Part shown: one piece after another, positions 4,148-63,073 of the stretch
How positions within the stretch are numbered: the stretch's first letter is position 1
How the letters are laid out: every line of letters begins with the position of its first letter
Assembly: GCF_003334305.1 (NCBI RefSeq)
Contig: NZ_QOWS01000001.1
Reading direction: 5' to 3' (one strand)
From: Escherichia coli
Lineage (GTDB): Bacteria > Pseudomonadota > Gammaproteobacteria > Enterobacterales > Enterobacteriaceae
Length of the DNA stretch: 64,000 nt
Position numbers and translations under genes: made by a program
The notes under the pieces: model-generated
The model's input: the letters and a program-made list of their open reading frames with translations, nothing else
Told to the model about the DNA's origin: nothing
Databases searched by the model: none

Positions 4148-5085
4148 TGAGCAGACGTGTTGCTACTATCACCCTTAATCCGGCTTATGACCTTGTTGGT
4201 TTCTGCCCGGAAATTGAACGCGGCGAAGTGAACCTGGTGAAAACCACCGGTCTGCATGCGGCGGGTAAAGGCATCAACGTGGCCAAAGTATTAAAAGACC
4301 TGGGAATTGATGTCACCGTTGGCGGCTTCCTGGGTAAAGACAATCAGGATGGTTTTCAGCAACTGTTCAGCGAGCTGGGCATTGCCAACCGTTTCCAGGT
4401 TGTACAGGGGCGCACCCGAATTAACGTTAAGCTGACGGAAAAAGACGGCGAAGTGACCGACTTCAACTTCTCGGGTTTTGAAGTCACCCCCGCCGACTGG
4501 GAACGCTTTGTGACTGATTCTCTGAGCTGGCTCGGTCAGTTCGATATGGTCTGTGTCAGCGGAAGCTTACCGTCAGGCGTCAGCCCGGAAGCGTTCACCG
4601 ACTGGATGACTCGCCTGCGTAGTCAGTGTCCTTGCATTATCTTTGATAGTAGCCGTGAAGCGTTAGTAGCAGGTTTGAAAGCGGCACCGTGGCTGGTGAA
4701 ACCTAACCGCCGCGAGTTGGAAATCTGGGCAGGCCGTAAACTGCCTGAAATGAAAGATGTGATTGAAGCTGCACATGCGCTACGTGAACAAGGTATTGCG
4801 CATGTTGTTATTTCACTGGGTGCCGAAGGCGCGCTTTGGGTTAATGCCTCCGGCGAATGGATCGCCAAACCACCGTCAGTCGATGTCGTAAGCACCGTTG
4901 GCGCAGGGGATTCTATGGTTGGTGGCCTGATTTATGGCTTGCTGATGCGTGAATCCAGTGAACACACACTGCGTCTGGCGACTGCTGTTGCAGCCCTGGC
5001 GGTAAGTCAAAGCAATGTGGGTATTACCGATCGTCCGCAGTTGGCCGCAATGATGGCGCGCGTCGACTTACAACCTTTTAACTGA
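4147..5085 (+). CDS. fruK: 1-phosphofructokinase FruK, 312 aa
   Basis: pfkB-family kinase ORF; start overlaps the fruB stop (ATGA coupling). Confidence 0.93.
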   Translation: MSRRVATITLNPAYDLVGFCPEIERGEVNLVKTTGLHAAGKGINVAKVLKDLGIDVTVGGFLGKDNQDGFQQLFSELGIANRFQVVQGRTRINVKLTEKDGEVTDFNFSGFEVTPADWERFVTDSLSWLGQFDMVCVSGSLPSGVSPEAFTDWMTRLRSQCPCIIFDSSREALVAGLKAAPWLVKPNRRELEIWAGRKLPEMKDVIEAAHALREQGIAHVVISLGAEGALWVNASGEWIAKPPSVDVVSTVGAGDSMVGGLIYGLLMRESSEHTLRLATAVAALAVSQSNVGITDRPQLAAMMARVDLQPFN

Positions 5086-5101
5086 CAGCAGGAGAGGCAT
5101 A

Positions 5102-6793
5102 ATGAAAACGCTGCTGATTATTGACGCTAATCTCGGTCAGGCACGCGCCTATATGGCGAAGACCCTGCTGGGCGCGGCGGCGCGAAAAGCAAAACTGGAA
5201 ATCATCGACAATCCGAACGACGCAGAAATGGCGATTGTTCTCGGTGATTCCATCCCGAATGACAGCGCGCTGAACGGTAAAAATGTCTGGCTGGGTGATA
5301 TTTCCCGGGCAGTTGCGCACCCTGAGCTGTTCCTGAGTGAAGCCAAAGGCCATGCGAAACCTTACACTGCGCCGGTCACTGCGACAGCACCGGTTGCCGC
5401 CAGCGGTCCGAAACGCGTAGTTGCGGTGACTGCTTGCCCGACTGGCGTAGCACACACCTTTATGGCGGCTGAAGCCATTGAAACCGAAGCGAAAAAACGT
5501 GGCTGGTGGGTGAAAGTTGAAACCCGTGGTTCTGTTGGCGCGGGTAATGCAATCACTCCCGAGGAAGTAGCCGCAGCGGATCTGGTGATTGTGGCGGCAG
5601 ATATCGAAGTGGATCTGGCGAAATTTGCTGGTAAACCGATGTATCGTACCTCTACCGGTCTGGCGCTGAAGAAAACCGCGCAGGAACTGGATAAAGCGGT
5701 TGCTGAAGCAACGCCGTATGAACCGGCGGGCAAAACTCAAACGGCGACCACTGAAGGTAAGAAAGAGAGTGCAGGCGCTTATCGTCACTTGCTAACGGGC
5801 GTCTCTTACATGCTGCCGATGGTCGTTGCTGGTGGTCTGTGTATCGCGCTTTCTTTTGCTTTTGGTATCGAAGCGTTTAAAGAGCCGGGTACGTTGGCAG
5901 CGGCGCTGATGCAGATTGGTGGTGGTTCAGCCTTTGCGCTGATGGTACCGGTACTGGCAGGTTATATTGCCTTTTCCATTGCCGATCGTCCGGGCCTCAC
6001 GCCGGGTCTGATTGGCGGTATGCTGGCGGTCAGCACCGGTTCTGGCTTCATTGGTGGTATTATTGCGGGCTTCCTGGCTGGTTACATTGCGAAGTTAATC
6101 AGTACGCAATTGAAACTGCCACAGAGTATGGAGGCGCTGAAACCGATCCTGATCATTCCGCTAATTTCCAGTCTGGTGGTCGGTCTGGCGATGATCTACC
6201 TGATCGGTAAACCGGTTGCTGGCATTCTCGAAGGGTTGACTCACTGGCTGCAGACCATGGGGACTGCGAATGCGGTTCTGCTGGGGGCGATCCTCGGTGG
6301 CATGATGTGTACTGACATGGGCGGTCCGGTAAATAAAGCAGCGTACGCATTCGGTGTGGGTCTGCTGAGTACTCAAACCTATGGCCCGATGGCGGCGATT
6401 ATGGCGGCAGGTATGGTGCCACCGCTGGCAATGGGCCTGGCAACAATGGTGGCGCGTCGCAAATTCGACAAAGCGCAGCAGGAAGGTGGCAAAGCCGCTC
6501 TGGTACTGGGACTGTGCTTTATTTCGGAAGGTGCAATTCCGTTTGCTGCTCGTGATCCGATGCGTGTGCTGCCGTGCTGTATCGTGGGTGGGGCGCTGAC
6601 TGGCGCAATCTCAATGGCGATTGGTGCGAAACTGATGGCACCGCACGGTGGTCTGTTTGTTCTGCTGATCCCTGGCGCTATTACGCCGGTATTGGGTTAC
6701 CTGGTAGCAATTATTGCCGGTACGCTGGTGGCGGGTTTGGCCTATGCCTTCCTGAAACGTCCGGAAGTGGACGCAGTAGCGAAAGCAGCGTAA
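5102..6793 (+). CDS. fruA: Fructose-specific PTS EIIB'BC component FruA, 563 aa
   Basis: 563-aa ORF with an N-terminal EIIB-like region and a C-terminal polytopic membrane domain. Confidence 0.93.
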   Translation: MKTLLIIDANLGQARAYMAKTLLGAAARKAKLEIIDNPNDAEMAIVLGDSIPNDSALNGKNVWLGDISRAVAHPELFLSEAKGHAKPYTAPVTATAPVAASGPKRVVAVTACPTGVAHTFMAAEAIETEAKKRGWWVKVETRGSVGAGNAITPEEVAAADLVIVAADIEVDLAKFAGKPMYRTSTGLALKKTAQELDKAVAEATPYEPAGKTQTATTEGKKESAGAYRHLLTGVSYMLPMVVAGGLCIALSFAFGIEAFKEPGTLAAALMQIGGGSAFALMVPVLAGYIAFSIADRPGLTPGLIGGMLAVSTGSGFIGGIIAGFLAGYIAKLISTQLKLPQSMEALKPILIIPLISSLVVGLAMIYLIGKPVAGILEGLTHWLQTMGTANAVLLGAILGGMMCTDMGGPVNKAAYAFGVGLLSTQTYGPMAAIMAAGMVPPLAMGLATMVARRKFDKAQQEGGKAALVLGLCFISEGAIPFAARDPMRVLPCCIVGGALTGAISMAIGAKLMAPHGGLFVLLIPGAITPVLGYLVAIIAGTLVAGLAYAFLKRPEVDAVAKAA

Positions 6794-10473: not shown

Positions 10474-10495
10474 ATCGCGCTATTGCAAATAATTT

Positions 10496-29715: not shown

Positions 29716-29730
29716 TGTGATTGTGGATAT

Positions 29731-29780
29731 TGCCGGATGCGCTGCATCCGGCAATCGGTGCCAAATGCCGGATGCGTCTC
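29731..29780. repeat. REP-like palindromic elements between convergent mglC and preA
   Basis: TGCCGGATGCGCTGCATCCGGCA and a second GCCGGATGCG unit. Confidence 0.5.
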
Positions 29781-32296: not shown

Positions 32297-32423
32297 TATA
32301 CTCGTCATACTTCAAGTTGCATGTGCTGCGTCTGCGTTCGCTCACCCCAGTCACTTACTTATGTAAGCTCCTGGGGACTCACTCACTTGTCGCCTTCCTG
32401 CAACTCGAATTATTTAGAGTATA
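32297..32423. repeat. ERIC (IRU) element, about 127 bp
   Basis: Hallmark TATACTCGTCATACTTCAAGTTGCATGTGCTGCG ... GCTCACCCCAGTCACTTACTTATGTAAGCTCCTGGGGA ... TGCAACTCGAATTATTTAGAGTATA with terminal inverted repeats. Confidence 0.7.
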
Positions 32424-32571
32424 AATATTGCGTGCTGATATTAAGGCTATGCGCGTGGGGAAATTTAAACTGTGAAAGGATTCACAAATAGCTGCGGTTC
32501 AGAATGTTACATCCGCAGCTTATTGAGTGAAGTAATAATTATTCTCAATAATTAACATAAAAGAGAAAATA

Positions 32572-34567
<1,996 letters not shown>

Positions 34568-36025: not shown

Positions 36026-36976
36026 ATGCGTGTGTTACTGGCTCCGATGGAGGGTGTGCTTGACTCTCTGGTGCGTGAATTGCTGACCGAAGTTAACGAC
36101 TACGATCTGTGCATCACCGAGTTTGTCCGCGTGGTGGATCAACTGCTGCCGGTAAAAGTCTTTCATCGCATTTGCCCTGAGCTACAAAACGCCAGCCGGA
36201 CACCATCTGGTACGCTGGTGCGCGTGCAGTTGTTAGGTCAGTTCCCACAATGGCTGGCAGAGAACGCCGCCCGTGCGGTGGAGTTAGGTTCCTGGGGCGT
36301 GGATCTCAATTGCGGCTGCCCGTCGAAAACGGTTAACGGTAGCGGCGGCGGCGCGACGTTACTCAAAGATCCTGAACTCATCTACCAGGGTGCAAAAGCG
36401 ATGCGTGAAGCTGTACCAGCGCATTTGCCCGTCAGCGTAAAAGTGCGTCTGGGCTGGGACAGCGGTGAGAAGAAATTTGAAATCGCCGATGCGGTTCAAC
36501 AGGCTGGCGCTACGGAGCTGGTGGTGCATGGACGGACAAAAGAGCAGGGTTACCGCGCGGAGCATATTGACTGGCAGGCGATTGGCGAGATTCGCCAGCG
36601 GCTGAATATTCCGGTGATTGCCAACGGCGAAATCTGGGACTGGCAGAGCGCGCAACAATGCATTGCGATCAGCGGCTGCGACGCAGTGATGATTGGTCGC
36701 GGGGCGCTCAATATTCCCAACCTGAGCCGGGTAGTAAAATATAACGAACCGCGAATGCCGTGGCCGGAGGTGGTTGCTTTGCTGCAAAAATATACCCGTC
36801 TGGAAAAGCAGGGCGATACCGGGTTATATCACGTTGCGCGGATTAAACAGTGGTTGAGTTATTTGCGTAAAAAATACGATGAAGCAACGGAATTATTTCA
36901 GCATGTTCGGGTGTTGAATAATTCCCCTGATATTGCAAGGGCTATTCAGGCAATTGATATCGATAAGCTGCGATAA
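36026..36976 (+). CDS. dusC: tRNA-dihydrouridine(16) synthase DusC, about 316 aa
   Basis: ORF 35960..36976; start set at ATG 36026 ([13 protein letters not shown]); Dus-family TIM barrel. Confidence 0.9.
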
Positions 36977-37059
36977 TAGTGGAATCGCAGTTTATCAGAG
37001 ACAATGAATCGCTTATTCAGCTTCATCATCTTGTTGCGCTCCTTTCATGAGCTAAGCCA

Positions 37060-37290
37060 CATATTGCCACTGGCGCAAGGAGCGCGCAGGGGGAGGACAA
37101 TCGCCTCCTCCCCCTGCACCCCCGGGCTCTGGCGAACAAAATCGCCGCTGCGCGGTACCTTCAGCTTATCCCCTTCGTCTACCGGGTCGGGCGCGAGGTA
37201 ACGTCCTTGTAAGACGCGCCCTCAGCCCACATCCATGTGGGCTGCCCCGGCCTTCGGGGAACGCTTCAGCGATTTTGACGCCACCAACAC
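37060..37290. repeat. GC-rich cluster of perfect hairpins in the dusC-yohP intergenic region (unclassified element)
   Basis: AGGGGGAGG-acaatcg-CCTCCCCCT, CAGCCCACA-tcca-TGTGGGCTG and CCCCGG-cctt-CGGGG stems; GC content well above the flanking AT-rich DNA. Confidence 0.35.
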
Positions 37291-37363
37291 CGGAGCTGTT
37301 TGCAAATCAAGTACACAAAATATCTAGTTCCTGACCTGACAACTTATATGCCATATCTGATTT

Positions 37364-37447
37364 TTAAAATATCATCTTAAATACGCCAGTCACCACCAGT
37401 AGCCCAATCAGGAAAATAATCAATACAGCCCAGAGTATAATTTTCAT
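37364..37447 (-). CDS. yohP: Small membrane protein YohP, 27 aa
   Basis: Minus-strand ORF, hand-translated as MKIILWAVLIIFLIGLLVVTGVFKMIF; absent from the ORF track because of its size. Confidence 0.7.
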   Translation of the reverse strand: MKIILWAVLIIFLIGLLVVTGVFKMIF

Positions 37448-37670
37448 TGGCGTTCCTTTATTTGTGAGTGCTGAATAAGTATAGGAAAAAACGAAGCCCT
37501 TTGCCGTTATCCATAAACGATTAAGATAAATCGGAAGATATCATTTACTTAGTCTATATTTTTCTGGATATGTCGTTTTATTGCTACTGATGTATTGCCA
37601 CGCGAAACTAAAAAATATATCGCAACACACGGTAATCTCCGCGCACCTTTTCTTACCTGATTATTCCCCC

Positions 37671-39107
37671 ATGAATCGTGATTCCTTTTATCCAGCCATC
37701 GCCTGTTTTCCGCTGTTACTGATGCTGGCCGGGTGTGCACCTATGCATGAAACCCGCCAGGCGTTAAGCCAGCAAACGCCTGCTGCACAAGTTGACACCG
37801 CATTACCCACGGCGCTGAAAAATGGTTGGCCAGACAGCCAATGGTGGCTGGAGTATCACGATAATCAACTCACTTCCTTAATTAACAATGCACTACAGAA
37901 CGCACCGGATATGCAGGTGGCTGAACAGCGCATTCAGCTAGCTGAAGCCCAGGCGAAGGCAATTGCTACTCAGGATGGTCCGCAGATCGACTTTTCTGCG
38001 GATATGGAGCGGCAAAAAATGTCGGCAGAAGGCTTAATGGGGCCGTTTGCTCTGAACGATCCGGCCGCAGGTACGACCGGTCCGTGGTACACCAACGGAA
38101 CTTTTGGCTTAACGGCGGGCTGGCATCTCGATATCTGGGGAAAGAATCGGGCGGAGGTTACTGCCCGCCTGGGTACGGTTAAAGCACGGGCGGCGGAACG
38201 CGAGCAAACCCGCCAATTGCTGGCTGGCAGCGTAGCCCGCCTGTACTGGGAGTGGCAAACCCAGGCGGCGTTAAACACGGTCTTGCAGCAAATAGAAAAA
38301 GAGCAGAACACCATTATCGCGACCGATCGCCAGCTATATCAGAACGGGATTACTTCTTCAGTTGAAGGTGTGGAAACCGATATTAATGCCAGCAAAACCC
38401 GGCAGCAGCTCAACGATGTCGCGGGGAAAATGAAAATTATTGAGGCACGGTTAAGCGCACTTACAAATAACCAGACAAAGTCATTGAAGCTTAAACCGGT
38501 CGCGTTGCCGAAAGTGGCAAGCCAGCTTCCTGATGAACTGGGGTACTCCTTACTGGCCCGGCGGGCAGATTTGCAGGCGGCGCACTGGTACGTTGAGTCA
38601 TCGCTAAGCACCATTGATGCGGCAAAAGCGGCATTTTATCCTGACATCAACCTGATGGCCTTCCTGCAACAGGATGCGTTGCACTTAAGCGATCTGTTCC
38701 GTCATTCCGCGCAGCAAATGGGCGTTACGGCAGGCCTGACGCTACCCATTTTCGATAGTGGTCGTCTTAACGCCAATCTCGATATCGCAAAAGCCGAAAG
38801 CAACTTGTCTATCGCCAGCTACAACAAAGCGGTGGTTGAAGCGGTGAATGACGTGGCGCGGGCAGCCAGTCAGGTTCAGACACTTGCGGAGAAAAACCAG
38901 CATCAGGCGCAAATTGAGCGCGATGCCTTGCGTGTGGTAGGTCTTGCGCAGGCGCGCTTTAACGCGGGCATCATTGCTGGTTCCCGCGTCAGCGAAGCCA
39001 GAATCCCCGCGCTGCGTGAGCGGGCCAATGGCCTGTTATTGCAAGGGCAGTGGCTGGATGCTTCCATTCAACTCACTGGTGCGTTGGGCGGGGGTTACAA
39101 ACGCTGA
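37671..39107 (+). CDS. mdtQ: Outer membrane efflux lipoprotein MdtQ (OMF family), 478 aa, apparently intact
   Basis: ORF 37581..39107; start set at ATG 37671 giving a lipoprotein signal (…LLMLAGCAPM). Confidence 0.85.
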   Translation: MNRDSFYPAIACFPLLLMLAGCAPMHETRQALSQQTPAAQVDTALPTALKNGWPDSQWWLEYHDNQLTSLINNALQNAPDMQVAEQRIQLAEAQAKAIATQDGPQIDFSADMERQKMSAEGLMGPFALNDPAAGTTGPWYTNGTFGLTAGWHLDIWGKNRAEVTARLGTVKARAAEREQTRQLLAGSVARLYWEWQTQAALNTVLQQIEKEQNTIIATDRQLYQNGITSSVEGVETDINASKTRQQLNDVAGKMKIIEARLSALTNNQTKSLKLKPVALPKVASQLPDELGYSLLARRADLQAAHWYVESSLSTIDAAKAAFYPDINLMAFLQQDALHLSDLFRHSAQQMGVTAGLTLPIFDSGRLNANLDIAKAESNLSIASYNKAVVEAVNDVARAASQVQTLAEKNQHQAQIERDALRVVGLAQARFNAGIIAGSRVSEARIPALRERANGLLLQGQWLDASIQLTGALGGGYKR

Positions 39108-39159
39108 TGATATGCGCCTTCTATACTTAACGTTTATTCAGCGTTAAGTGGAGAACTCG

Positions 39160-39921
39160 ATGGCACAGGTTGCGATTATTACCGCCTCCGATTCGGGGAT
39201 CGGCAAAGAGTGCGCGTTATTACTGGCGCAGCAGGGGTTTGATATTGGCATTACCTGGCACTCAGATGAAGAAGGGGCAAAAGATACCGCGCGTGAGGTA
39301 GTTAGCCACGGCGTACGTGCGGAGATCGTGCAGCTGGATCTCGGTAAACTGCCAGAAGGTGCGCAGGCGCTGGAGAAACTCATTCAACGGCTGGGGCGTA
39401 TTGATGTGCTGGTGAATAATGCGGGCGCAATGACCAAAGCGCCGTTTCTTGATATGGCTTTCGATGAGTGGCGCAAGATTTTTACCGTTGATGTCGATGG
39501 TGCATTTTTATGCTCACAAATTGCGGCCCGCCAGATGGTGAAACAAGGGCAGGGCGGTCGCATCATCAACATTACGTCGGTACATGAACATACGCCGCTG
39601 CCGGATGCCAGCGCCTACACAGCCGCTAAACATGCGCTCGGTGGGTTAACCAAAGCGATGGCGCTGGAGCTGGTCAGGCATAAGATTTTGGTGAACGCAG
39701 TCGCGCCTGGGGCGATCGCCACGCCAATGAATGGCATGGATGACAGCGACGTGAAGCCCGACGCGGAGCCTTCGATTCCTCTGCGGCGTTTTGGCGCAAC
39801 GCATGAGATTGCCAGCCTGGTAGCGTGGCTGTGCTCAGAGGGCGCAAATTACACCACCGGGCAGTCGTTGATAGTGGATGGCGGCTTTATGTTGGCGAAT
39901 CCGCAGTTCAACCCAGAATAG
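39160..39921 (+). CDS. yohF: Short-chain dehydrogenase/reductase YohF, 253 aa
   Basis: ORF begins at a GTG at 39148; ATG at 39160 (MAQVAIITASDSGIGKE) with an upstream GGAG; SDR glycine motif. Confidence 0.9.
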   Translation: MAQVAIITASDSGIGKECALLLAQQGFDIGITWHSDEEGAKDTAREVVSHGVRAEIVQLDLGKLPEGAQALEKLIQRLGRIDVLVNNAGAMTKAPFLDMAFDEWRKIFTVDVDGAFLCSQIAARQMVKQGQGGRIINITSVHEHTPLPDASAYTAAKHALGGLTKAMALELVRHKILVNAVAPGAIATPMNGMDDSDVKPDAEPSIPLRRFGATHEIASLVAWLCSEGANYTTGQSLIVDGGFMLANPQFNPE

Positions 39922-41386: not shown

Positions 41387-41559
41387 AAAGTTCTTTGACG
41401 TTGCATTGCTGGCGTAAATGTCAGCAATGCAGCATTTCCTCACGATTCTCCTTTGACGATCGCACTTTTTGCTCGTTATGATGGCGTCGCTAGCCTCAGT
41501 AAATCCTTACTCCGGCGGTGCGCAACCCGTGCGCGTGAACCACTATCTGAATGCTCATC

Positions 41560-55330: not shown

Positions 55331-57331
55331 TCATCCTTGTTGCTGAAGCATGGGGAATAATTGTTCGCAAAGTAAAACACCGTTATTCATTGCTTCTACC
55401 CGTGCCTCGCTTTCTGTATTACGAAATTGTCCCAACACATGTGCCAGCCGATAAAAACCGACCGCGGAGAGGTCATTCGCCAGCAACTCTGCCTGACTAA
55501 TAGCGCTCTGTTCCTGATAGCGCCAGCCGTTATGGAGCAGTTGAATAAGTAACGCCTGGCAGCGCATCAGCAACTGATGAGCGGTAGACGGCACAGGCAA
55601 AACGCTGGCAGAAGGTAGCGGTGCCACAGGCGCAGTTTCTGCGTCCAGCGCCCAGGCGCGGGTTTTTGTCATCATCACCCGTGGTTCCAGTGTCAATTGC
55701 CCATCAACAAAACTGACAAAGCCAGAAACCAGACTCACGGGGTCGTCTGTTTGTTGCAAAAGCGCCGCCATGCGTTCAACGGCAAAAGGAGAACAGGCAG
55801 ATGCCGGAAGGGATAACGTCAGGAGATTATCTTCACCTTCGCCGCTGATTACCTGCGCATCCAGCGTCTGGCGGCTGCTATCCCAACCGAGCGAAATACA
55901 CTCAGCGACCGGCAGAATAAATAAGTTATCGACCTGATTAAGAGGCCGTATGCAGGCGGGGGGACGCTGGCGTAAATATTCCCGCAAAGCCACAATGCCC
56001 GGCTGGCGTAACGGCGCGCTCAACATTTGCCAGGCATCAGGCGACAGCGGCACAACGCTGCTTAAGCGGTTGCGGGTAGCTAACAGCAGCTCGCCATCGG
56101 CACTGCGTTTTGCTGCTTGTGAAACAATTTGCCCACCCGCCAGTGCGCCAGCCTGAAAACTAAACAGCCGACGCGTAGCTGCCGGTGAGTTTTCCTGTTC
56201 ACTTCGCGGCCAACTGCGCGAAAGGTGCAAAATACTGCCGGTGTCGGGATCGGTAAACCAGATGCGTAAACCATAATGCTCAATATCCTGCCAGCAACGC
56301 ATACCTAAAGACACCAGCCGCAGATGATCAAGCTTTGCTTCTCCGGCAATGCCAGAGCCAACGACCGTGCGCCACGGCACAGGAGGAACTTCACCAACAC
56401 TGTCGCGCCGGGCCATCTCTTGTGCGCAATTTAATCGACTGTTTAATGCCGCAAGCTGACGTAAGCATTCTCCGGCATGATAGTGGCTGGCGCGGGCGTG
56501 GAAGGCATCAACGCTTGCCCGTAGCTGTCGTAGTGATTCACTCACCCATCGCCAGTTGCAGCGTTCCGCCGCCTGCTGCGCGCGACTGAAAGCGGCCTCG
56601 TAGTGAATAAGCGGCTGGCTGATGCCGCCCAGCCATAATGCCTGGCTTAATTGCTGAACATATTGACGACACGCGTTACCCTCGTCGTTGGCAAACGGAT
56701 CGTCAGATGATGTGACGTGTTCGCTGCGCATCTGCCAGATTAAATGAGTAAATTCCGCTTGCTGAGTTTTGGCCTCGACGAAGGCCTGCACAGCCAGTAC
56801 GACATGTTCGCAAAGTGTGCCTTCAATACAATCACAACGGGCGAAACGAATACTGCTGCGGGAATAAAAACGCACATCGCTCATCGGTAAGCGGGCAGAG
56901 GGAATTTCGCCCGGCGTACAGAACAACTCAATGGTGATGCCTTTAGCGACCAACGCCTGTGCGCGTTTGCGGGTGGCATCGGGCAGGGTAGCCAGTTCTT
57001 CCAGCCAGATTGCCGGATCCCACGCTTCTTCTTTTTCCGTAGGCTGGGCGGTAGTACAAAGTCGTTGATAACTTAACACAAGCATCACGCGATGACGGCA
57101 CATACCGCTGGCCCCGCAGCTGCACTGAGCCTCTTTCAGTGCCTGGCTGTTCGCCAGCTGGGTACGGACACCGTCACTGAAGGTGGCGATTAAAGCGCTG
57201 TTCTCATGGCTGATTTCCGGGACGTTGCCATTTTCCAGTTCCTTAAGACTGCGCTTAACAAAACCGGCATTGCTTAACGCCGTCAGGGCCTGCGGTGTCA
57301 GTTCTAATAATTCCGGACGTAGTGAATTCAT
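55331..57331 (-). CDS. yehQ: SWIM zinc-finger domain protein YehQ, 666 aa from this start
   Basis: ORF 55331..57355; start assigned to ATG 57331 because it forms an ATGA overlap with the yehP stop; Cys/His cluster near the N-terminus (CSCGASGMCRH). Confidence 0.85.
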   Translation of the reverse strand: MNSLRPELLELTPQALTALSNAGFVKRSLKELENGNVPEISHENSALIATFSDGVRTQLANSQALKEAQCSCGASGMCRHRVMLVLSYQRLCTTAQPTEKEEAWDPAIWLEELATLPDATRKRAQALVAKGITIELFCTPGEIPSARLPMSDVRFYSRSSIRFARCDCIEGTLCEHVVLAVQAFVEAKTQQAEFTHLIWQMRSEHVTSSDDPFANDEGNACRQYVQQLSQALWLGGISQPLIHYEAAFSRAQQAAERCNWRWVSESLRQLRASVDAFHARASHYHAGECLRQLAALNSRLNCAQEMARRDSVGEVPPVPWRTVVGSGIAGEAKLDHLRLVSLGMRCWQDIEHYGLRIWFTDPDTGSILHLSRSWPRSEQENSPAATRRLFSFQAGALAGGQIVSQAAKRSADGELLLATRNRLSSVVPLSPDAWQMLSAPLRQPGIVALREYLRQRPPACIRPLNQVDNLFILPVAECISLGWDSSRQTLDAQVISGEGEDNLLTLSLPASACSPFAVERMAALLQQTDDPVSLVSGFVSFVDGQLTLEPRVMMTKTRAWALDAETAPVAPLPSASVLPVPSTAHQLLMRCQALLIQLLHNGWRYQEQSAISQAELLANDLSAVGFYRLAHVLGQFRNTESEARVEAMNNGVLLCEQLFPMLQQQG

Positions 57332-58464
57332 GACTGAAGATTCTCCGCAAGCCATGATGCCAGCTCGCCCGGTGTCATGGCGGCTATTTGTGCGCCGACA
57401 TTTACCAGCGCCTGGGCCGTATCGTGGTCATAGCAAGGTGTTGCTGTGCTATCGAGCGCTGCCAGTCCCAGCACTTTGATGCAGCTCTGGACACACTTTT
57501 TCACCTGATGCGTCAGTAATGATGATGAACCCCCTTCGTAAAAATCGCTCACGAGGATAATGACGCTTTTCGCTGGTTGTTCAATAAGTTGCCGACCATA
57601 CTCCACGGCACTGGCGATATTGGTCCCGCCGCCCAACTGTACTTTCATTAATAACTCTACCGGATCGGCAACGTCTGCCGTGAGATCAACGACGCTTGTG
57701 TCAAACGCCACCAGATGGGTACGAATGCCGGGTAACTGCCACAAACAGGCCGCCATCACCGCAGAGTGGATCACCGAATCGACCATCGATCCGCTTTGAT
57801 CAACCAGTAAGACCAGTTGCCATTGTTCGCTTTGGCGTTTAATGCGGCTGTTAAAGCGGGGGGATTCGATATACAACTTGCCGTGTTGCGGGTGCCAGTG
57901 TTGCAGGTTGGCGCGCAGAGTACTTTTGAAATCAAAGTTTCGCGCCAGTGGAATAAATGAACGGCGACGGCGATCGCGGACACCAGAAAAAGCCTGACGA
58001 ACTTCCTTTGCCAGTCGCGCCATAATTTCTTCAACAACCTGGCGCACTATCTGGCGGGCGGCAGCCAGTACTTCGGGATTCATCAGATGTTTGGTGTGCA
58101 AAACGGCGCGTAGCAGGCTTTCCGAAGGCTGCATACGTTCCAGCACGTCGAGATTTGTCACCACATCTTCAATGCCGTAGCGCAGTACGGCATCGCTTTC
58201 CAGCCGCTCAATCACCTGTTGCGGAAACAGCGTGTGGATACTGTTGATCCACTCAGGAGTGGTGAGATTTGAGCCACCTAATCCACCAGAGCGTTCACCA
58301 CGCTGGAGCCGTTCAGGATCGCGCCCATACAGCCACTCCAGCGCGTGATCTATCTGCCGGGCGTTGTCATCCAGCCCACAAAGCGTCGTTTCTGCCGCTT
58401 CGCCAAGAATTAATCGCCAGCGTTGTAGCTCACGGGTGGTCAGAAGATCGTTCAGTTCAGACAT
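57328..58464 (-). CDS. yehP: von Willebrand factor A (VWA) domain protein YehP, 378 aa
   Basis: ORF 57328..58692; start at 58464 (MSELNDLLTTRELQRW); VWA/MIDAS-like region (LLVDQSGSM). Confidence 0.88.
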   Translation of the reverse strand: MSELNDLLTTRELQRWRLILGEAAETTLCGLDDNARQIDHALEWLYGRDPERLQRGERSGGLGGSNLTTPEWINSIHTLFPQQVIERLESDAVLRYGIEDVVTNLDVLERMQPSESLLRAVLHTKHLMNPEVLAAARQIVRQVVEEIMARLAKEVRQAFSGVRDRRRRSFIPLARNFDFKSTLRANLQHWHPQHGKLYIESPRFNSRIKRQSEQWQLVLLVDQSGSMVDSVIHSAVMAACLWQLPGIRTHLVAFDTSVVDLTADVADPVELLMKVQLGGGTNIASAVEYGRQLIEQPAKSVIILVSDFYEGGSSSLLTHQVKKCVQSCIKVLGLAALDSTATPCYDHDTAQALVNVGAQIAAMTPGELASWLAENLQS

Positions 58465-60735
58465 GGAAAACTCCCCAGTGTTGCAGCGATGCCAGTGCCT
58501 GCTGTTCGAGTTGTTGATGATGTGCAATGGCTTGCGGTGGACAATGCAACGGCATTTGCAGTGCCGAAACGGGAAGTTGCGCCAGTTGATAATGCTCAAG
58601 CACCTGATGCGCCAGCGTTCCGCGTTCTCGTGGCGGTAGCCAGGCCATCGCCGCGCGTAAATCGGGCAGGGCATTGATAAAATCGGCATCACTTAGTTGA
58701 TTTAAATGACTGCTGAAACCGGCGATAAATGTCGGCTGACAGGCCAGTTGATGACGGGCTAATGCCAGCAAACCTTGCAGCGCCTCGCCGGATTGTGCCG
58801 GGGATAACTGCGCCAGCATCGTCAGCGCCGCTTCGGCACTGGCGTTGGGATGTTCCAGACGCATTAGTGCGCCAAGAACCGCGCCGCGATCCAGCGCCGG
58901 GGCATGAATCGCCTGACTGCGTCGCTCCAGTAAGGCTACCGCCGCAGAAAGCGAAACGCCGGATAAATTAACGCCGCTATGTAGATCGCGCAGAATATGG
59001 CAAAGCGCTTGCCAGCTATGCAGGTGAGCGTGAAACTCCTTTTCATCCGGTCTGCCGTTAGATTCACACAGCCACAGCGTGCGATCGATAGCGCGCATAA
59101 CGTCGTTTGTAATATCTGCGCGCCTTGCATACCGCTAATTTCATCCAGCCGCCATAAGGCATATAGCACTTCCAGCGCCTGGCCCATTTCGGCAAATTGA
59201 TTTTCCTGGGCGATTAATAATGTGAGTTGCTCCAGTAATTGTTGACTGAAGGACGCCAGACCCGCTAACGCCGCCTGGCTAAGACATGTGGTGATACTGC
59301 CGATTCCACCCGCGTCCAGCATATCGGCTTCTAATTTATGGCGTGCGGCTTCCTGGAGTGTTGCACCAAAGCAGGCGGCCTCAATCAATGCCGCATGCTG
59401 GCTAAGCGGGCGGGTTAATTTCCAGCGTTCTTCACCGTTGCCTGCAAGTGTCAGTGTGCTTCCCTGCTGGCGTACAATCCCTGGGATCTCCAGTATTGCC
59501 AGCCGATGTAACACCTGACTTTGCGCTAGTCCATTGGGGTTAAAGCGATTTAAGGTAAGCTCCGCCGGAAGAGAGATTGCGGTACGTTCCAGTTCGCAGG
59601 TGACATCTTTTGGCAGAGGCGGTTGTGGCGTAGAAGGGGCAAGTTTACCGAATCCGTCACCCGCTAATGTGTCTATCAACGTTAGCAGAATCGGATCGGT
59701 ATCGGGATGAATAACGCCGCGATAGCTCCACGGCAACGGCGCATTCAGGGCTTCTTTAATCAGCGAGCCTGCTATGGCATCCAGCCAGTCAGTGCGTAAC
59801 GGTAGTGTATGACCGCGCAACTGTGCCAGCGCCATCGCATGCAGATGAGCGGCAGCCATATCCGCGGTCGAAGCAGGCAACTTGTGCTGGCGCAAACGGG
59901 TGAGAACCGTTTTTAGCAGTTGTTCTCCCGCCTGCTGTAAGCCCCACTGCCAGCACCAGTTTTGCCAGACCGGGGCAGGCATTCCGGAAAGGTATCCTGC
60001 CAGCACATCAAGGCGCTTTTCACTGTAGGGGGTGAGATAACAACCTGTAACGGCATCTGCCAGCGACGGCAATTCTGGCGTGTTAATTTCCTGCGGGCAT
60101 TCGCGCCACATTTTTGCCAGTACCGGAGCGTGCCAGCCACCGCAGACAACTAACACGTCGCCATTATTTTGCTGCATCGCCCATCCAATCCAGCGGGCCA
60201 TAAAGGCTTCGCGCAGACGATTGAGAGCATCTCCGGGGGAGTCGCCCCGCAGTTGGGCAAAATAGTGCGCCAGTGCAGAGGGTAATGCAGTTTGCTGGCT
60301 TTCATCTTCGAACAAGTGATCCCACAGGGTGTCGCTGTTATCCATGCGGGTGGCACGCAGCAGCAAGGCCTGGCTTTCCTCTTGCGTATCAGGCGAATCG
60401 TCCACTTCTTCACTCTGCGCCCAGCAAGGCAAATCGATGAAGTAAGTTTGTGCCTGAATACGACGTGCGGCTTGTAGCGCCTGCCACTCCGGCGAAAATT
60501 CAGCAAATGGCGTCCAGGCACCACGCCCGGGGGCTGCACCGTCCTGATACTGGCAATAACTGTAAATAGCTACCGGAAGCTGGTGGGCTAAAAACAGTTC
60601 GTCTACCCGGTCATTAAAATCAGCCGGGCCTTCAATCAATACGTATCGTGGCCGCTGGCTTTCGATTAACGATTTCACCAGCCGGGCGCAGGCCGGACTA
60701 TGATGCCGGATGCCGACAATTAACGGCTCGCTCAT
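58457..60735 (-). CDS. yehM: YehM, interrupted by an apparent frameshift (fragments 58936..60735 and 58457..59098 in different frames)
   Basis: Two overlapping minus-strand ORFs span 2279 nt (not a multiple of 3); N-terminal fragment starts MSEPLIVGIRHH at 60735; the C-terminal fragment ends overlapping the yehP start. Either a pseudogene or a sequence indel. Confidence 0.7.
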
Positions 60736-60745
60736 GCATCTTTCC

Positions 60746-61834
60746 TCACGGCAGGCGGTGGCGGGCTTGATAATAAGCCTGCCAGTGAGCTTCTTTATGT
60801 GTGGCGACTCGTTGTTCGAAGTAACGGCGCAGACGAGCGCGATCTTCTTCGTTATCTTTGACGATGGTTCCGGCAATGCAGTCCACCAGGTCGGCTGGCT
60901 CACCTGCGCGATTCGCTAAAAACCAGGCGCGGACGCCTACGGCGTGGGCCACGTTCACGGCTTCAGCGGTGGACATAATCGCTGTTAGTGTATCCATTGA
61001 CGTTTTCTTTTCGCCGTTGGCACGCAGATCGCGGAAGGTGCGGACCAGTAACTCCAGTACCGCGTCAGGCACTTTATGCGGAATACCGCTATGGGCCAGC
61101 AAACGCGCCGAAGCACTGGCGACAAGCTCCAGCTCCTGGGCGAAATCCATAATCGGAAAGACAGTTTCAAAATCGAAGCGACGCTTTAGCGCAGCACTCA
61201 TTTCATTGACGCCGCGATCTCGGGTATTGGCAGTGGCAATAATATTAAAGCCTTCTCGCGCATAGAGCTGACTGGCTTCACCAGTGAGTTCCGGCACCGT
61301 CATCACCCTGTCAGAAAGCATACCTAACAGACAGTCTTGCACTTCCAGCGGTGTACGCGTTATCTCTTCAAAACGGACGATTTTGCCGTCGCGCATTCCC
61401 TGGTAAAGCGGGGCAGGGACCAGCGCTTCCGTTGATGGACCATGATTGATAAGCAGGGCGTAGTTCCAGCCGTACTTGATTTGATCTTCGGTAGTAGATG
61501 CGCCGCCCTGGATGGTTAACCCGGCATCGCCGCTAATAGCGGTTGCCAGTAATTCAGACAGGAGAGATTTTGCGGTGCCAGGTTCCCCCACCAACATCAA
61601 ACCGCGCCCGGTGGCAAGAGTGACTAACATGCGTTCGACAGCGGAGGGACTAATCACCACTTTACGGCTAATATTTTGCGCGCTATCGCCAAGGATAAAA
61701 GCACGGGCCGCAGGCAAACTTAACTGCCAACCGGGCGGGCAAGGAGCGTTATCATTTTGTTTTAATTTTGCCAGTTCATCGGCGTATAACACAGCAGCAG
61801 GCGGACGCTGCAGATGATTATTCTGCGGTGACAT
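60746..61834 (-). CDS. yehL: MoxR-like AAA+ ATPase YehL, 362 aa
   Basis: ORF 60746..61915; start at 61834 (MSPQNNHLQRPPAA); Walker A GEPGTAKS. Confidence 0.9.
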   Translation of the reverse strand: MSPQNNHLQRPPAAVLYADELAKLKQNDNAPCPPGWQLSLPAARAFILGDSAQNISRKVVISPSAVERMLVTLATGRGLMLVGEPGTAKSLLSELLATAISGDAGLTIQGGASTTEDQIKYGWNYALLINHGPSTEALVPAPLYQGMRDGKIVRFEEITRTPLEVQDCLLGMLSDRVMTVPELTGEASQLYAREGFNIIATANTRDRGVNEMSAALKRRFDFETVFPIMDFAQELELVASASARLLAHSGIPHKVPDAVLELLVRTFRDLRANGEKKTSMDTLTAIMSTAEAVNVAHAVGVRAWFLANRAGEPADLVDCIAGTIVKDNEEDRARLRRYFEQRVATHKEAHWQAYYQARHRLP

Positions 61835-61944: not shown

Positions 61945-62028
61945 TAAAAAAACCTGCTGGTGAGGCAGGTTCTTTTATTTACTATTTTCAGGCCTAACAC
62001 CACAGCCTGTGCAACATCGTGTTCCAAC
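61945..62028 (-). ncRNA. Candidate antisense sRNA antitoxin (OrzO/OrzP-type), about 84 nt
   Basis: Minus-strand TTGCAA-17 bp-TATAAT promoter (-10 at plus 62035-62040); predicted 5' end near 62028; strong terminator (AACCTGC-loop-GCAGGTT then TTTTT on minus); first ~20 nt complementary to the toxin leader at 62175-62194. Confidence 0.6.
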
Positions 62029-62034
62029 GAACGA

Positions 62035-62085
62035 ATTATAACCACGGCTGGACCCCGTTGCAATTAAGATAATGAGATTTATAAT
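62035..62085. promoter_or_regulatory. Back-to-back sigma70-like promoters sharing one palindromic -35 hexamer (toxin mRNA rightward, antisense sRNA leftward)
   Basis: Shared TTGCAA at 62058-62063; plus-strand TATAAT at 62080-62085 (16-bp spacer); minus-strand TATAAT at 62035-62040 (17-bp spacer). Confidence 0.55.
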
Positions 62086-62266
62086 CCAGACCGTTGGGAC
62101 GTTGCGCCGGATCGAACCTATTTCAAGTCCTGGCTACCGGACGGGGGGTGCTGCAGGTGGTGCCCTGATCCGGAGTGCAACATCGTGGTCCAACATACGT
62201 AAACCAGTATCGACAGGCAGTGTAAGGGTAAGGTGCTGGTGTTGCGCTCCTTAATAAGGAGAGCGG

Positions 62267-62356
62267 ATGGACTCGCTGACACAAAAGTTAACCGTGCTCA
62301 TTGCTGTACTGGAGCTATTAGTGGCTCTGTTACGGTTGATTGATTTGTTGAAGTAA
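62267..62356 (+). CDS. zorO/zorP: 29-aa hydrophobic peptide, type I toxin candidate (ZorO/ZorP-type)
   Basis: ATG 62267, AAGGAG 5 nt upstream; MDSLTQKLTVLIAVLELLVALLRLIDLLK, one predicted TM helix with charged ends; about 174-nt leader from the predicted start near 62093. Family name is from memory; which copy is zorO and which zorP is not resolved. Confidence 0.75.
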   Translation: MDSLTQKLTVLIAVLELLVALLRLIDLLK

Positions 62357-62377
62357 CGGGCAAATTGAAACGCATCT

Positions 62378-62402
62378 AAGGGGGAAAACCGCTTCCCCCT
62401 TT
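62378..62402 (+). terminator. Terminator hairpin of toxin mRNA copy 1
   Basis: AAGGGGGAA-aaccgc-TTCCCCCTT perfect 9-bp stem 22 nt after the stop; short U-tract. Confidence 0.5.
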
Positions 62403-62554
62403 AATAAAATGATTACTGTTTTTATTAATTCATCATATAACTCATTTTTATTTATAAATTCATCGATTTTATATTCAACGCACCATTTGACCGGGATGTG
62501 AATATTTATGTTGGGCTATTGGCAAAAAATATCTGGAAAGTAGATCGCAGAAAA

Positions 62555-62636
62555 TAAAAAAACCTGCTGGTGAGGCAGGTTCTTTTATTTACTACAGTGA
62601 CGCTAACTTGCTGATTGTGCAACATTTCGTACCAAC
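62555..62636 (-). ncRNA. Candidate antisense sRNA antitoxin, copy 2 (OrzO/OrzP-type), about 82 nt
   Basis: Minus-strand -10 TATAAT at plus 62643-62648 and shared -35 TTGCAA at 62666-62671; terminator 62561-62581 with U-tract; 5' region complementary to the copy-2 leader at 62783-62802. Confidence 0.6.
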
Positions 62637-62642
62637 GAATAA

Positions 62643-62693
62643 ATTATAACCATATCCACACTCCATTGCAATTCAGTGAGTGAGATTTATAAT
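62643..62693. promoter_or_regulatory. Back-to-back promoters of copy 2 sharing a palindromic -35
   Basis: TTGCAA at 62666-62671; plus-strand TATAAT 62688-62693; minus-strand TATAAT at plus 62643-62648. Confidence 0.5.
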
Positions 62694-62874
62694 CCTGCCC
62701 GTTGGGAGGTTGTGCCGGATCGGACCAATTTTAAGTCCTGGCTGCCGGACGGGTGGTGCCGCAGGCGGTGCCCTGATCCGGAGAGCAACGTTTCGTACCA
62801 ACATACGTAAACCAGTATCAACAGGCAGTGTAAGGGTAAGGTGCTGGTGTTGCGCTCCTTAATAAGGAGAGCGG

Positions 62875-62964
62875 ATGGACACGCTGACACAAAAGTTAAC
62901 CGTGCTCATTGCCGTACTGGAGTTATTAGTGGCTCTGTTACGGTTGATTGATTTGTTGAAGTAA
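62875..62964 (+). CDS. zorO/zorP: 29-aa hydrophobic peptide, type I toxin candidate copy 2 (ZorO/ZorP-type)
   Basis: ATG 62875 with AAGGAG upstream; MDTLTQKLTVLIAVLELLVALLRLIDLLK, differing from copy 1 only at residue 3 (S to T). Confidence 0.75.
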   Translation: MDTLTQKLTVLIAVLELLVALLRLIDLLK

Positions 62965-62985
62965 CGGGCAAATTGAAACGCATCT

Positions 62986-63010
62986 AAGGGGGAATACCGT
63001 TTCCCCCTTT
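62986..63010 (+). terminator. Terminator hairpin of toxin mRNA copy 2
   Basis: AAGGGGGAA-taccgt-TTCCCCCTT stem. Confidence 0.5.
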
Positions 63011-63018
63011 AAGAAAGC

Positions 63019-63073
63019 TATACTCGTCATACTTCAAGTTGCATGTGCTGCGACTTTAATTATCTAGAGTATA
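63019..63073. repeat. Truncated ERIC-like element abutting the yehK 3' end
   Basis: TATACTCGTCATACTTCAAGTTGCATGTGCTGCG ... AATTATCTAGAGTATA: ERIC terminal arms with the central part missing. Confidence 0.55.

Follow-up and report, generated by a model that had tools for sequence, protein, structure and literature searches.

The window (the whole stretch of Escherichia coli DNA that was analyzed, 64,000 nucleotides) carries mdtQ (yohG) in the gene order dusC-yohP-mdtQ-yohF-yohD-yohC-pbpG, which is also the order in K-12, in strains cq9 and A7, and in Salmonella. The Citrobacter locus has the same order without yohF. The gene and the features within and around it are the following.

37364 to 37447, reverse strand: yohP, the gene for a 27-residue small membrane protein, divergent from mdtQ (by the RefSeq annotation of cq9 and A7, with both its start and its stop codon read in the sequence)
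37589 to 37615, forward strand: conserved upstream block GATGTATTGCCACGCGAAACTAAAAAA, at -82 to -56 from the mdtQ ATG (yohP-mdtQ intergenic alignment)
37671 to 39107, forward strand: mdtQ (yohG) coding sequence, 478 codons plus stop, intact (ORF and translation; NF008524; 100% identity to the mdtQ of cq9 and A7)
37671 to 37736, forward strand: predicted lipoprotein signal peptide with the lipobox L-A-G-C at residues 19-22, nt 37725-37736 (read from the sequence)
37818 to 37822, forward strand: A5 run in codons Lys50-Asn51; K-12 has A4 here, an inactivating -1 frameshift (pairwise alignment with MG1655 and BW25113)
37875 to 38468, forward strand: OEP repeat 1, residues 69-266, with predicted strands 105-116 and 139-153 and predicted helices 158-224 and 230-265 (Pfam PF02321, E = 3.2e-17; AlphaFold2)
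38547 to 39089, forward strand: OEP repeat 2, residues 293-473, with predicted strands 325-336 and 348-357 and predicted helices 359-431 and 437-471 (Pfam PF02321, E = 9.8e-13; AlphaFold2)
39160 to 39921, forward strand: yohF, an SDR oxidoreductase gene, 52 nt downstream of mdtQ (RefSeq annotation)

The mdtQ reading frame runs on the forward strand from an ATG at 37671 to a TGA at 39105-39107 (1437 nt) with zero internal stops, so that the continuous 478-codon ORF described in an earlier note on this DNA is indeed present. At the base composition of the window, 478 codons in a row would be free of stops with a probability of about 2e-10. The mechanical ORF that contains mdtQ opens further upstream, with a TTG at 37581. 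The start was nevertheless placed at 37671, because the NF008524 profile aligns over residues 1-478 of 1-478, because RefSeq annotates the same start in the genomes with an identical mdtQ (cq9 and A7), and because the N-terminus (MNR...) is conserved in Salmonella and Citrobacter.

The encoded protein is identical to WP_001078114.1, which is annotated in strains cq9 and A7. It scores 1023.9 bits against NF008524, the NCBIfam equivalog model for MdtQ, with residues 1-478 on profile positions 1-478 of 478; the curated cutoff is 650 bits, and membership calls for an end-to-end alignment of the whole protein. The window protein thus belongs to the MdtQ orthologous group by both score and chromosomal position. 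An identity as MdtP was rejected, as the full-length match to NF007390 reaches 356.1 bits, under its 597-bit cutoff, which marks the protein as a paralog of MdtP rather than a member of that family. At a broader level, TIGR01845, the model for the NodT subfamily of outer-membrane factors (OMFs), gives 273.8 bits against a trusted cutoff of 210.05. This score, together with two tandem OEP repeats, places MdtQ in the NodT family, and the alignment of residues 16-475 to profile positions 4-460 of 460 agrees with the full outer-membrane-factor length claimed earlier.

The N-terminus of MdtQ reads MNRDSFYPAIACFPLLLMLAGC, followed by APMHE, with an alanine at +2; mature MdtQ is predicted to begin with a lipidated Cys22. 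All 60 homologs in an alignment that extends down to 26% identity have this cysteine, and LAGC or MAGC followed by APMH is kept in the Salmonella and Citrobacter proteins. A lipobox and a conserved cysteine are what characterize NodT lipoproteins, and MdtQ has both as judged from its sequence alone; the lipoprotein signal peptide of the earlier note therefore holds.

An AlphaFold2 model of the MdtQ protomer, computed from the 60-sequence alignment, has a mean pLDDT of 84.8 and a pTM of 0.79. Its beta-strands, four in number, and its long helical hairpins (158-224/230-265 and 359-431/437-471) are arranged as in an OMF protomer, and the predicted structure accordingly falls within that fold. When the model was compared with the PDB by Foldseek, all matches at E <= 0.001 (44/44) were OMF channels, with VceC at the top, followed by OprN, CusC, CmeC, SilC, OprJ, OprM, MtrE, and TolC. 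PDB matches by sequence are VceC (1yc9, E = 1.1e-39, residues 51-477), OprM, CmeC, SilC, and CusC. The feature in the window is thus very probably an ordinary wild-type allele of mdtQ (yohG), encoding a NodT-family OMF lipoprotein of the TolC/OprM kind.

In K-12, mdtQ is annotated as a pseudogene; the RefSeq records of an MG1655 derivative, a BW25113 derivative, and W3110 each carry the gene as a 1436-nt "frameshifted" pseudogene. A 2025 paper on YohP likewise refers to "the mdtQ pseudogene" in K-12 (PMC12719787). The lesion was located by global pairwise alignment of the window mdtQ with the MG1655 and BW25113 copies, the check that the earlier note had named beforehand. Over 1437 nt, the window and K-12 genes differ by 10 substitutions and one gap. 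The gap is a single A lost from the A5 run at 37818-37822, where K-12 reads GCTGAAAATGG and the window reads GCTGAAAAATGG. The K-12 product consists of 50 native residues and 19 out-of-frame residues, with a stop after residue 69. A K-12-type pseudogene in the window was considered and rejected, as A5 stands at 37818-37822 and the frame is open through 39107. The window is therefore free of the K-12 disruption, and the K-12 copy is in fact frameshifted; both the identity of mdtQ and the nature of the K-12 lesion are close to certain.

Two ways in which the K-12 gene could be rescued were considered. Downstream of the lesion, the correct frame of K-12 mdtQ is open further, but it has no ATG before Met81, and a product reinitiated there would be without a signal peptide. 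Slippage was also rejected, as four A residues are too few for RNA polymerase to slip efficiently, and a -1 slip of tRNA-Lys would land on GAA. With no earlier ATG and no signal peptide in the downstream frame, K-12 mdtQ cannot give an exported channel. When the missing A is restored, the K-12 allele differs from that of the window by nine synonymous changes and one non-synonymous change (I98V), and it lies about one base from the intact alleles of ATCC 8739, E. coli C, BLR(DE3), and many field isolates. So few differences between K-12 and intact alleles show that the lesion is recent and lies on a common haplotype, without further decay.

Of 5426 complete E. coli genomes, 5391 contain at least 80% of mdtQ; the gene is chromosomal in every case and usually single-copy. 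Alleles were counted by a proxy, namely exact matches to a lesion-centered 64-mer (A4) or 65-mer (A5), for which one mismatch brings the identity below 99%. The window (A5) 65-mer is exact in 4587 of the 5426 genomes and the K-12 (A4) 64-mer in 355. About 470 other genomes carry SNP variants; these span the full 65 nt in the rows sampled, and hence have no deletion of the A. Among the A4 carriers listed (64 of the 355 in total), all 64 are K-12 laboratory derivatives, including MG1655 with its evolved and engineered descendants, C600, J53, DH5alpha, DH1, NCM3722, AG100, and RR1. Among these 64 of 355 carriers, the A4 lesion is apparently confined to K-12 laboratory derivatives. Intact mdtQ is the rule in E. 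coli, and K-12 is the exception.

A difference of one base in a homopolymer is the classic error type of some sequencing platforms, and the A5/A4 difference could in principle be a sequencing or assembly artefact, either in the window or in the K-12 reference. The probability of this is negligible. Independently assembled genomes reproduce both alleles exactly, 355 of them A4 and 4587 A5. The A5 run also gives back the reading frame that Salmonella (with A5) and Citrobacter (with A6) have kept, and the 24-kb core of the window is 100.0% identical to an independent complete genome.

That genome is strain A7, from orangutan faeces, which matches window positions 28000-52000 at 100.0% with the top bit score, while its identity to K-12, with which it is collinear, is 98.3-99.2% for the window. 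The "toxin island" previously noticed in the window is a tandem zorO-orzO/zorP-orzP type I toxin-antitoxin locus in the yehK-yehL gap; at this gap, K-12 keeps one OrzO-like RNA and is missing about 930 bp, including both toxin ORFs. One ERIC copy lies at 32297-32423, a site at which K-12 has no ERIC. The K-12 identity, the A7 match, the zor-orz locus, and the ERIC copy bear out the non-K-12 background that had been proposed. The earlier note also took intact mdtQ as a sign of this background. This is consistent with a non-K-12 strain, but intact mdtQ is a weak marker, being the normal state of the species and not notable for the strain; alone, it would not separate the strain from about 93% of sequenced E. 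coli. It is the sign of a normal non-K-12 chromosome, and its practical value is caution, not discovery. Intact mdtQ outside K-12 is already known in the literature, as a 2025 review describes mdtQ as a conserved member of the E. coli core genome, although it is annotated as a pseudogene (PMC11762307). The present analysis adds the exact lesion, its apparent confinement to K-12 among the listed carriers, estimates of selection, and the genomic context of the nearest relatives.

For the estimates of selection, eight divergent E. coli alleles were chosen across the range of 97.1-98.8% identity to the window. All eight are 1437 nt long and open. The mean pairwise dN/dS among them (Nei-Gojobori) is 0.098, with a range of 0.03-0.20, and the 97 variable sites fall at codon positions 1, 2, and 3 in the numbers 19, 12, and 66, respectively. 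MdtQ orthologs of 478-479 residues occur in E. albertii (94% identity), Salmonella (82%), and Citrobacter (80-81%). Comparisons between genera give a dN/dS of 0.05-0.06 (Salmonella and Citrobacter), with dS saturated, and the orthologs of these two genera share the locus, start, and lipobox of the E. coli gene. mdtQ is thus under purifying selection both within E. coli and between genera. It is also clearly dispensable, as K-12 thrives without it, as natural E. coli alleles exist that are shortened by in-frame deletions of 24-58 residues (454, 453, 435, and 420 aa), and as the gene has been truncated independently in Salmonella Typhi and Paratyphi A (PMC9241588).

The region upstream of mdtQ offers few conventional signals. 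A sigma-70 consensus scan of the yohP-mdtQ intergenic region returned no promoter, with hits in the scanned region at chance level, and no Shine-Dalgarno-like sequence precedes the mdtQ ATG, either in the window (CCCCCATG) or in Salmonella and Citrobacter (CCTCCATG and TCTCCATG). For these reasons, mdtQ expression may be low or conditional. Rfam, at gathering threshold, found no structured RNA family around mdtQ at 36900-39300. No terminator is predicted between mdtQ and yohF, and yohF is possibly co-transcribed with mdtQ. The block at 37589-37615 is conserved at 26 of its 27 positions in E. coli, Salmonella, and Citrobacter, the exception being position 17, which is A in E. coli and T in the other two; this conservation makes it a candidate regulatory site. 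A reading of the block as a marbox, prompted by co-induction with MarA, agrees by eye at about 10 of 14 specified positions and is not claimed. The co-induction was seen in an E. coli isolate from a pig: under paeonol treatment, MdtQ protein was up (log2 fold change 2.28), as were MarA and MarR (PMC12584432). In Salmonella, yohG is induced by hypochlorite (PMC9065344).

The missing Shine-Dalgarno and consensus promoter sequences fit an alternative in which intact mdtQ is a cryptic or near-redundant relic, rarely expressed, of little contribution because TolC serves the known pumps, and on its way to loss, with K-12 having gone first. The orphan state of mdtQ, which has no partner genes nearby, also speaks for a relic, as does its recurrent loss (the K-12 frameshift, the four shortened E. 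coli alleles, and the Typhi and Paratyphi A truncations), and a review states that the function of MdtQ has not been elucidated (PMC11762307). On the other hand, values of dN/dS near 0.1 within E. coli and near 0.05 between genera are incompatible with neutral drift. Also against a relic are the presence of at least 80% of the gene in 5391 of 5426 genomes, the conservation of its length, start, lipobox, and locus in Escherichia, Salmonella, and Citrobacter and of upstream blocks between genera, and the detection and induction of the protein in the field isolate (PMC12584432). The relic is therefore an unlikely explanation.

MdtQ probably makes a working OMF channel. Purifying selection, the predicted OMF fold, and detection of the protein in the porcine isolate (PMC12584432) lend support to the "potentially functional" efflux channel of the earlier note. 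By analogy with NodT-type OMFs, the path from gene to channel can be outlined. The MdtQ precursor would be exported by Sec, Cys22 would be lipidated and the signal peptide cleaved by signal peptidase II, and the alanine at +2 would route the lipoprotein via Lol to the outer membrane. Three protomers could then assemble into a barrel of 12 strands, extended into the periplasm by a tunnel of helices. This tunnel is proposed to dock on the periplasmic adaptor of an inner-membrane transporter encoded elsewhere, and thereby to serve as its exit duct.

No adaptor or pump gene lies within the 64-kb window, and the same orphan arrangement is found in Salmonella and Citrobacter. A 2025 review of TolC names CusC, MdtP, and MdtQ as three further OMFs of E. 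coli, with mdtQ encoded independently (PMC11762307). The class of partner was guessed from the genomic context of the nearest relatives outside the MdtQ cluster. Three of these (P0127, 42% identity; P0129, 37%; P0128, 35%) each lie downstream of genes for YtcA, for an adaptor resembling MdtN/AaeA, and for a FUSC-family permease resembling MdtO. A fourth (P0125, 42%) follows an MdtO-like permease on a short contig, and a fifth (P0131, 39%) lies between an MFS transporter and an EmrA-like adaptor. A closer relative (P0121, 60%) has a YohF-like SDR downstream of it, which identifies it as a true MdtQ ortholog, and has no adjoining pump gene; its contig, like that of P0126, has too little sequence to reveal partner genes.

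The nearest non-orphan relatives (35-42% identity) thus sit in YtcA-MdtN-MdtO-OMF operons, and the closest solved structure, VceC, serves an MFS-type pump. On this basis, the partner of MdtQ may tentatively be sought, at somewhat less than even odds, in an adaptor of the MdtN/EmrA/AaeA class together with a FUSC-family (MdtO/AaeB-like) or MFS transporter, rather than in an RND system. A wider reading, which is possible but doubtful, would have MdtQ induced under certain conditions and working in the outer membrane as the exit duct of a non-RND pump, either a FUSC system like MdtNO/AaeAB or an MFS system like EmrAB, with a role that was missed in K-12 work and with the block at 37589-37615 as the site of its regulator. 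The role would have gone unnoticed because nearly all E. coli efflux genetics used K-12, a natural mdtQ null.

MdtQ could instead be a backup exit duct for TolC-dependent pumps (AcrAB, EmrAB, MacAB, and others), not dedicated to a transporter of its own. This is improbable, as MdtQ shares only about 12-13% sequence identity with TolC and resembles lipoprotein OMFs of the MdtP/VceC type far more, and as those of its nearest relatives that have genomic context are tied to MdtNO-type systems. In addition, tolC mutants of Salmonella and of non-K-12 E. coli stay hypersusceptible despite an intact mdtQ.

The K-12 lesion has direct consequences for how efflux data are read. K-12 and its derivatives (MG1655, W3110, BW25113 and with it the Keio collection, DH5alpha, and J53) are natural mdtQ nulls by one missing A. 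Studies of efflux that used K-12 only therefore cannot reveal a role of MdtQ, and phenotypes of a K-12 "mdtQ knockout" should be read sceptically. The yohG knockout of Sulavik et al. 2001 reportedly had W3110 as its parent strain. As W3110 carries the frameshift, the drug-susceptibility phenotype cited for yohG, if it came from W3110, is not evidence for a channel function of MdtQ. If the reading of MdtQ as a dedicated, conditionally induced exit duct is true, the phenotype of yohG toward puromycin, acriflavine, and tetraphenylarsonium needs another cause, for instance polar or neighborhood effects on yohP or yohF, and the regulator that turns mdtQ on would bind to the 27-nt upstream block.

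Compared with known systems, the window gene is nearest to MdtQ of other non-K-12 strains (WP_001078114.1; UniProt Q8X659 in O157:H7), with which it shares locus, length, lipobox, and domains; nothing of substance differs, and the window protein is four residues away from the O157:H7 allele. The K-12 pseudogene (b2139; UniProt P33369, which is a conceptual translation) has the same locus and belongs to the same haplotype family, but has A4 and a stop after 69 residues. The closest paralog family in E. coli is that of MdtP (YjcP), the OMF of the ytcA-mdtNOP operon. Both proteins are NodT-type lipoproteins, whereas mdtQ stands alone with no adaptor or transporter gene adjoining. TolC (PDB 1ek9) is more distant in sequence (12-13% identity), is not a lipoprotein, and has many proven partners, in contrast to MdtQ, which has none. 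It does share the channel-tunnel fold with the MdtQ model (Foldseek E = 1.9e-14; TM-scores of 0.68 query-normalized and 0.76 target-normalized) and, like MdtQ, is encoded apart from its partner pumps. Among solved structures, the best relative by both sequence and fold is VceC of Vibrio cholerae (PDB 1yc9), the OMF of the MFS-type VceCAB pump. While vceC lies in an operon with its own pump and mdtQ does not, VceC matches the MdtQ model with a target-normalized TM-score of 0.86 at only 25% identity.

The frameshift of K-12 mdtQ (yohG) bears on how its knockout phenotype is to be read. W3110 carries the same frameshift as other K-12 strains (positions 4658-6093 of the W3110 locus L016; NC_007779.1 2230657-2232092), and BW25113 mdtQ is likewise frameshifted. 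The much-cited phenotype of a yohG knockout (puromycin, acriflavine, tetraphenylarsonium) was reportedly measured in W3110, by Sulavik in 2001. If the phenotype does come from W3110, it therefore arose in a strain that was already MdtQ-null, and because BW25113 is frameshifted, the Keio yohG mutant also descends from an MdtQ-null parent.

Other natural E. coli alleles encode MdtQ proteins with in-frame internal deletions, which leave 454, 453, 435, or 420 residues (variant proteins P0004, P0008, P0014, and P0025). For instance, GTVKARAAEREQTRQLLAGSVARL is missing in one example, and 43 residues are gone after NASK in another. The 435-residue variant is found on 43 contigs, one complete chromosome among them. 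Such deletions are likely to break the helical tunnel and would represent independent loss-of-function events.

Upstream of mdtQ, two sequence blocks are conserved among E. coli, Salmonella, and Citrobacter in an intergenic region that has otherwise diverged:

37589-37615, block 1, GATGTATTGCCACGCG[A/T]AACTAAAAAA, -82 to -56 from the ATG
37627-37654, block 2, GTAATCTC[C/T]GC[G/A]CA[C/T]CTTTT[C/T]TTA, about -44 to -17

The two blocks are candidate regulator or promoter elements. No Shine-Dalgarno-like sequence precedes the mdtQ ATG in E. coli, Salmonella, or Citrobacter.

Small repeat elements of the window also differ from those of K-12 and strain cq9:

37016-37292, TRIP1c element between dusC (yohI) and yohP
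32297-32423, ERIC/IRU element, 127 bp, its core (32339-32382) on the minus strand with 1 mismatch to the consensus core

The first of these is the TRIP1c element of PMC10888264, for which both orientations, as well as TRIP1a/1c exchanges, are on record (PMC10888264). Against K-12 and strain cq9, it matches only in the opposite orientation and at 87-88% identity, so it has been either inverted or swapped for another TRIP1 copy. K-12 lacks an ERIC/IRU copy at the site occupied in the window, and the syntenic region of cq9 has one that is 96.9% identical but lies elsewhere (window-equivalent about 10480-10492). In the mglC-preA gap, approximately 186 bp of K-12 (positions 32424-32611 of the concatenated K-12 loci L006 and L007) are absent from the window (29726-29741), probably reflecting another small repeat-element polymorphism.

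Two further features of the window involve structured RNAs, namely a Peptidase-S11 motif and a tandem zor-orz type I toxin-antitoxin locus, the latter in the yehK-yehL gap:

41475-41555, plus strand, Peptidase-S11 RNA motif (RF03039), Rfam 72.8 bits (gathering score 34.8)
61946-62964, tandem zor-orz locus
61946-62021, minus strand, OrzO-P antitoxin RNA 1, Rfam 99.9 bits
62267-62356, plus strand, toxin ORF 1, 29 residues, MDSLTQKLTVLIAVLELLVALLRLIDLLK
62556-62629, minus strand, OrzO-P antitoxin RNA 2, Rfam 88.8 bits
62875-62964, plus strand, toxin ORF 2, 29 residues, beginning MDTLTQ

The RF03039 motif lies directly upstream of pbpG, which encodes an S11-family D-alanyl-D-alanine endopeptidase (peptidase family S11), and this is the location expected for a Peptidase-S11 motif. 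Approximately 930 bp of the zor-orz region (62124-63054), including both toxin ORFs, are absent from the K-12 yehK-yehL gap, which retains one OrzO-P-like RNA (99.9 bits). The RefSeq annotation of strain A7 has no feature in this 1.2-kb gap.

In the yehLMPQ cluster, the pseudogene states of the window are the mirror image of those in K-12:

55331-57355, minus strand, yehQ, a single open 674-codon ORF
58457-60903, minus strand, yehM, split into two overlapping ORFs of 213 and 655 codons

The split of yehM agrees with the "frameshifted" flag on the yehM of strain A7. The yehQ gene is open in the window, whereas the K-12 copy has an internal stop; conversely, yehM is split in the window but intact in K-12.
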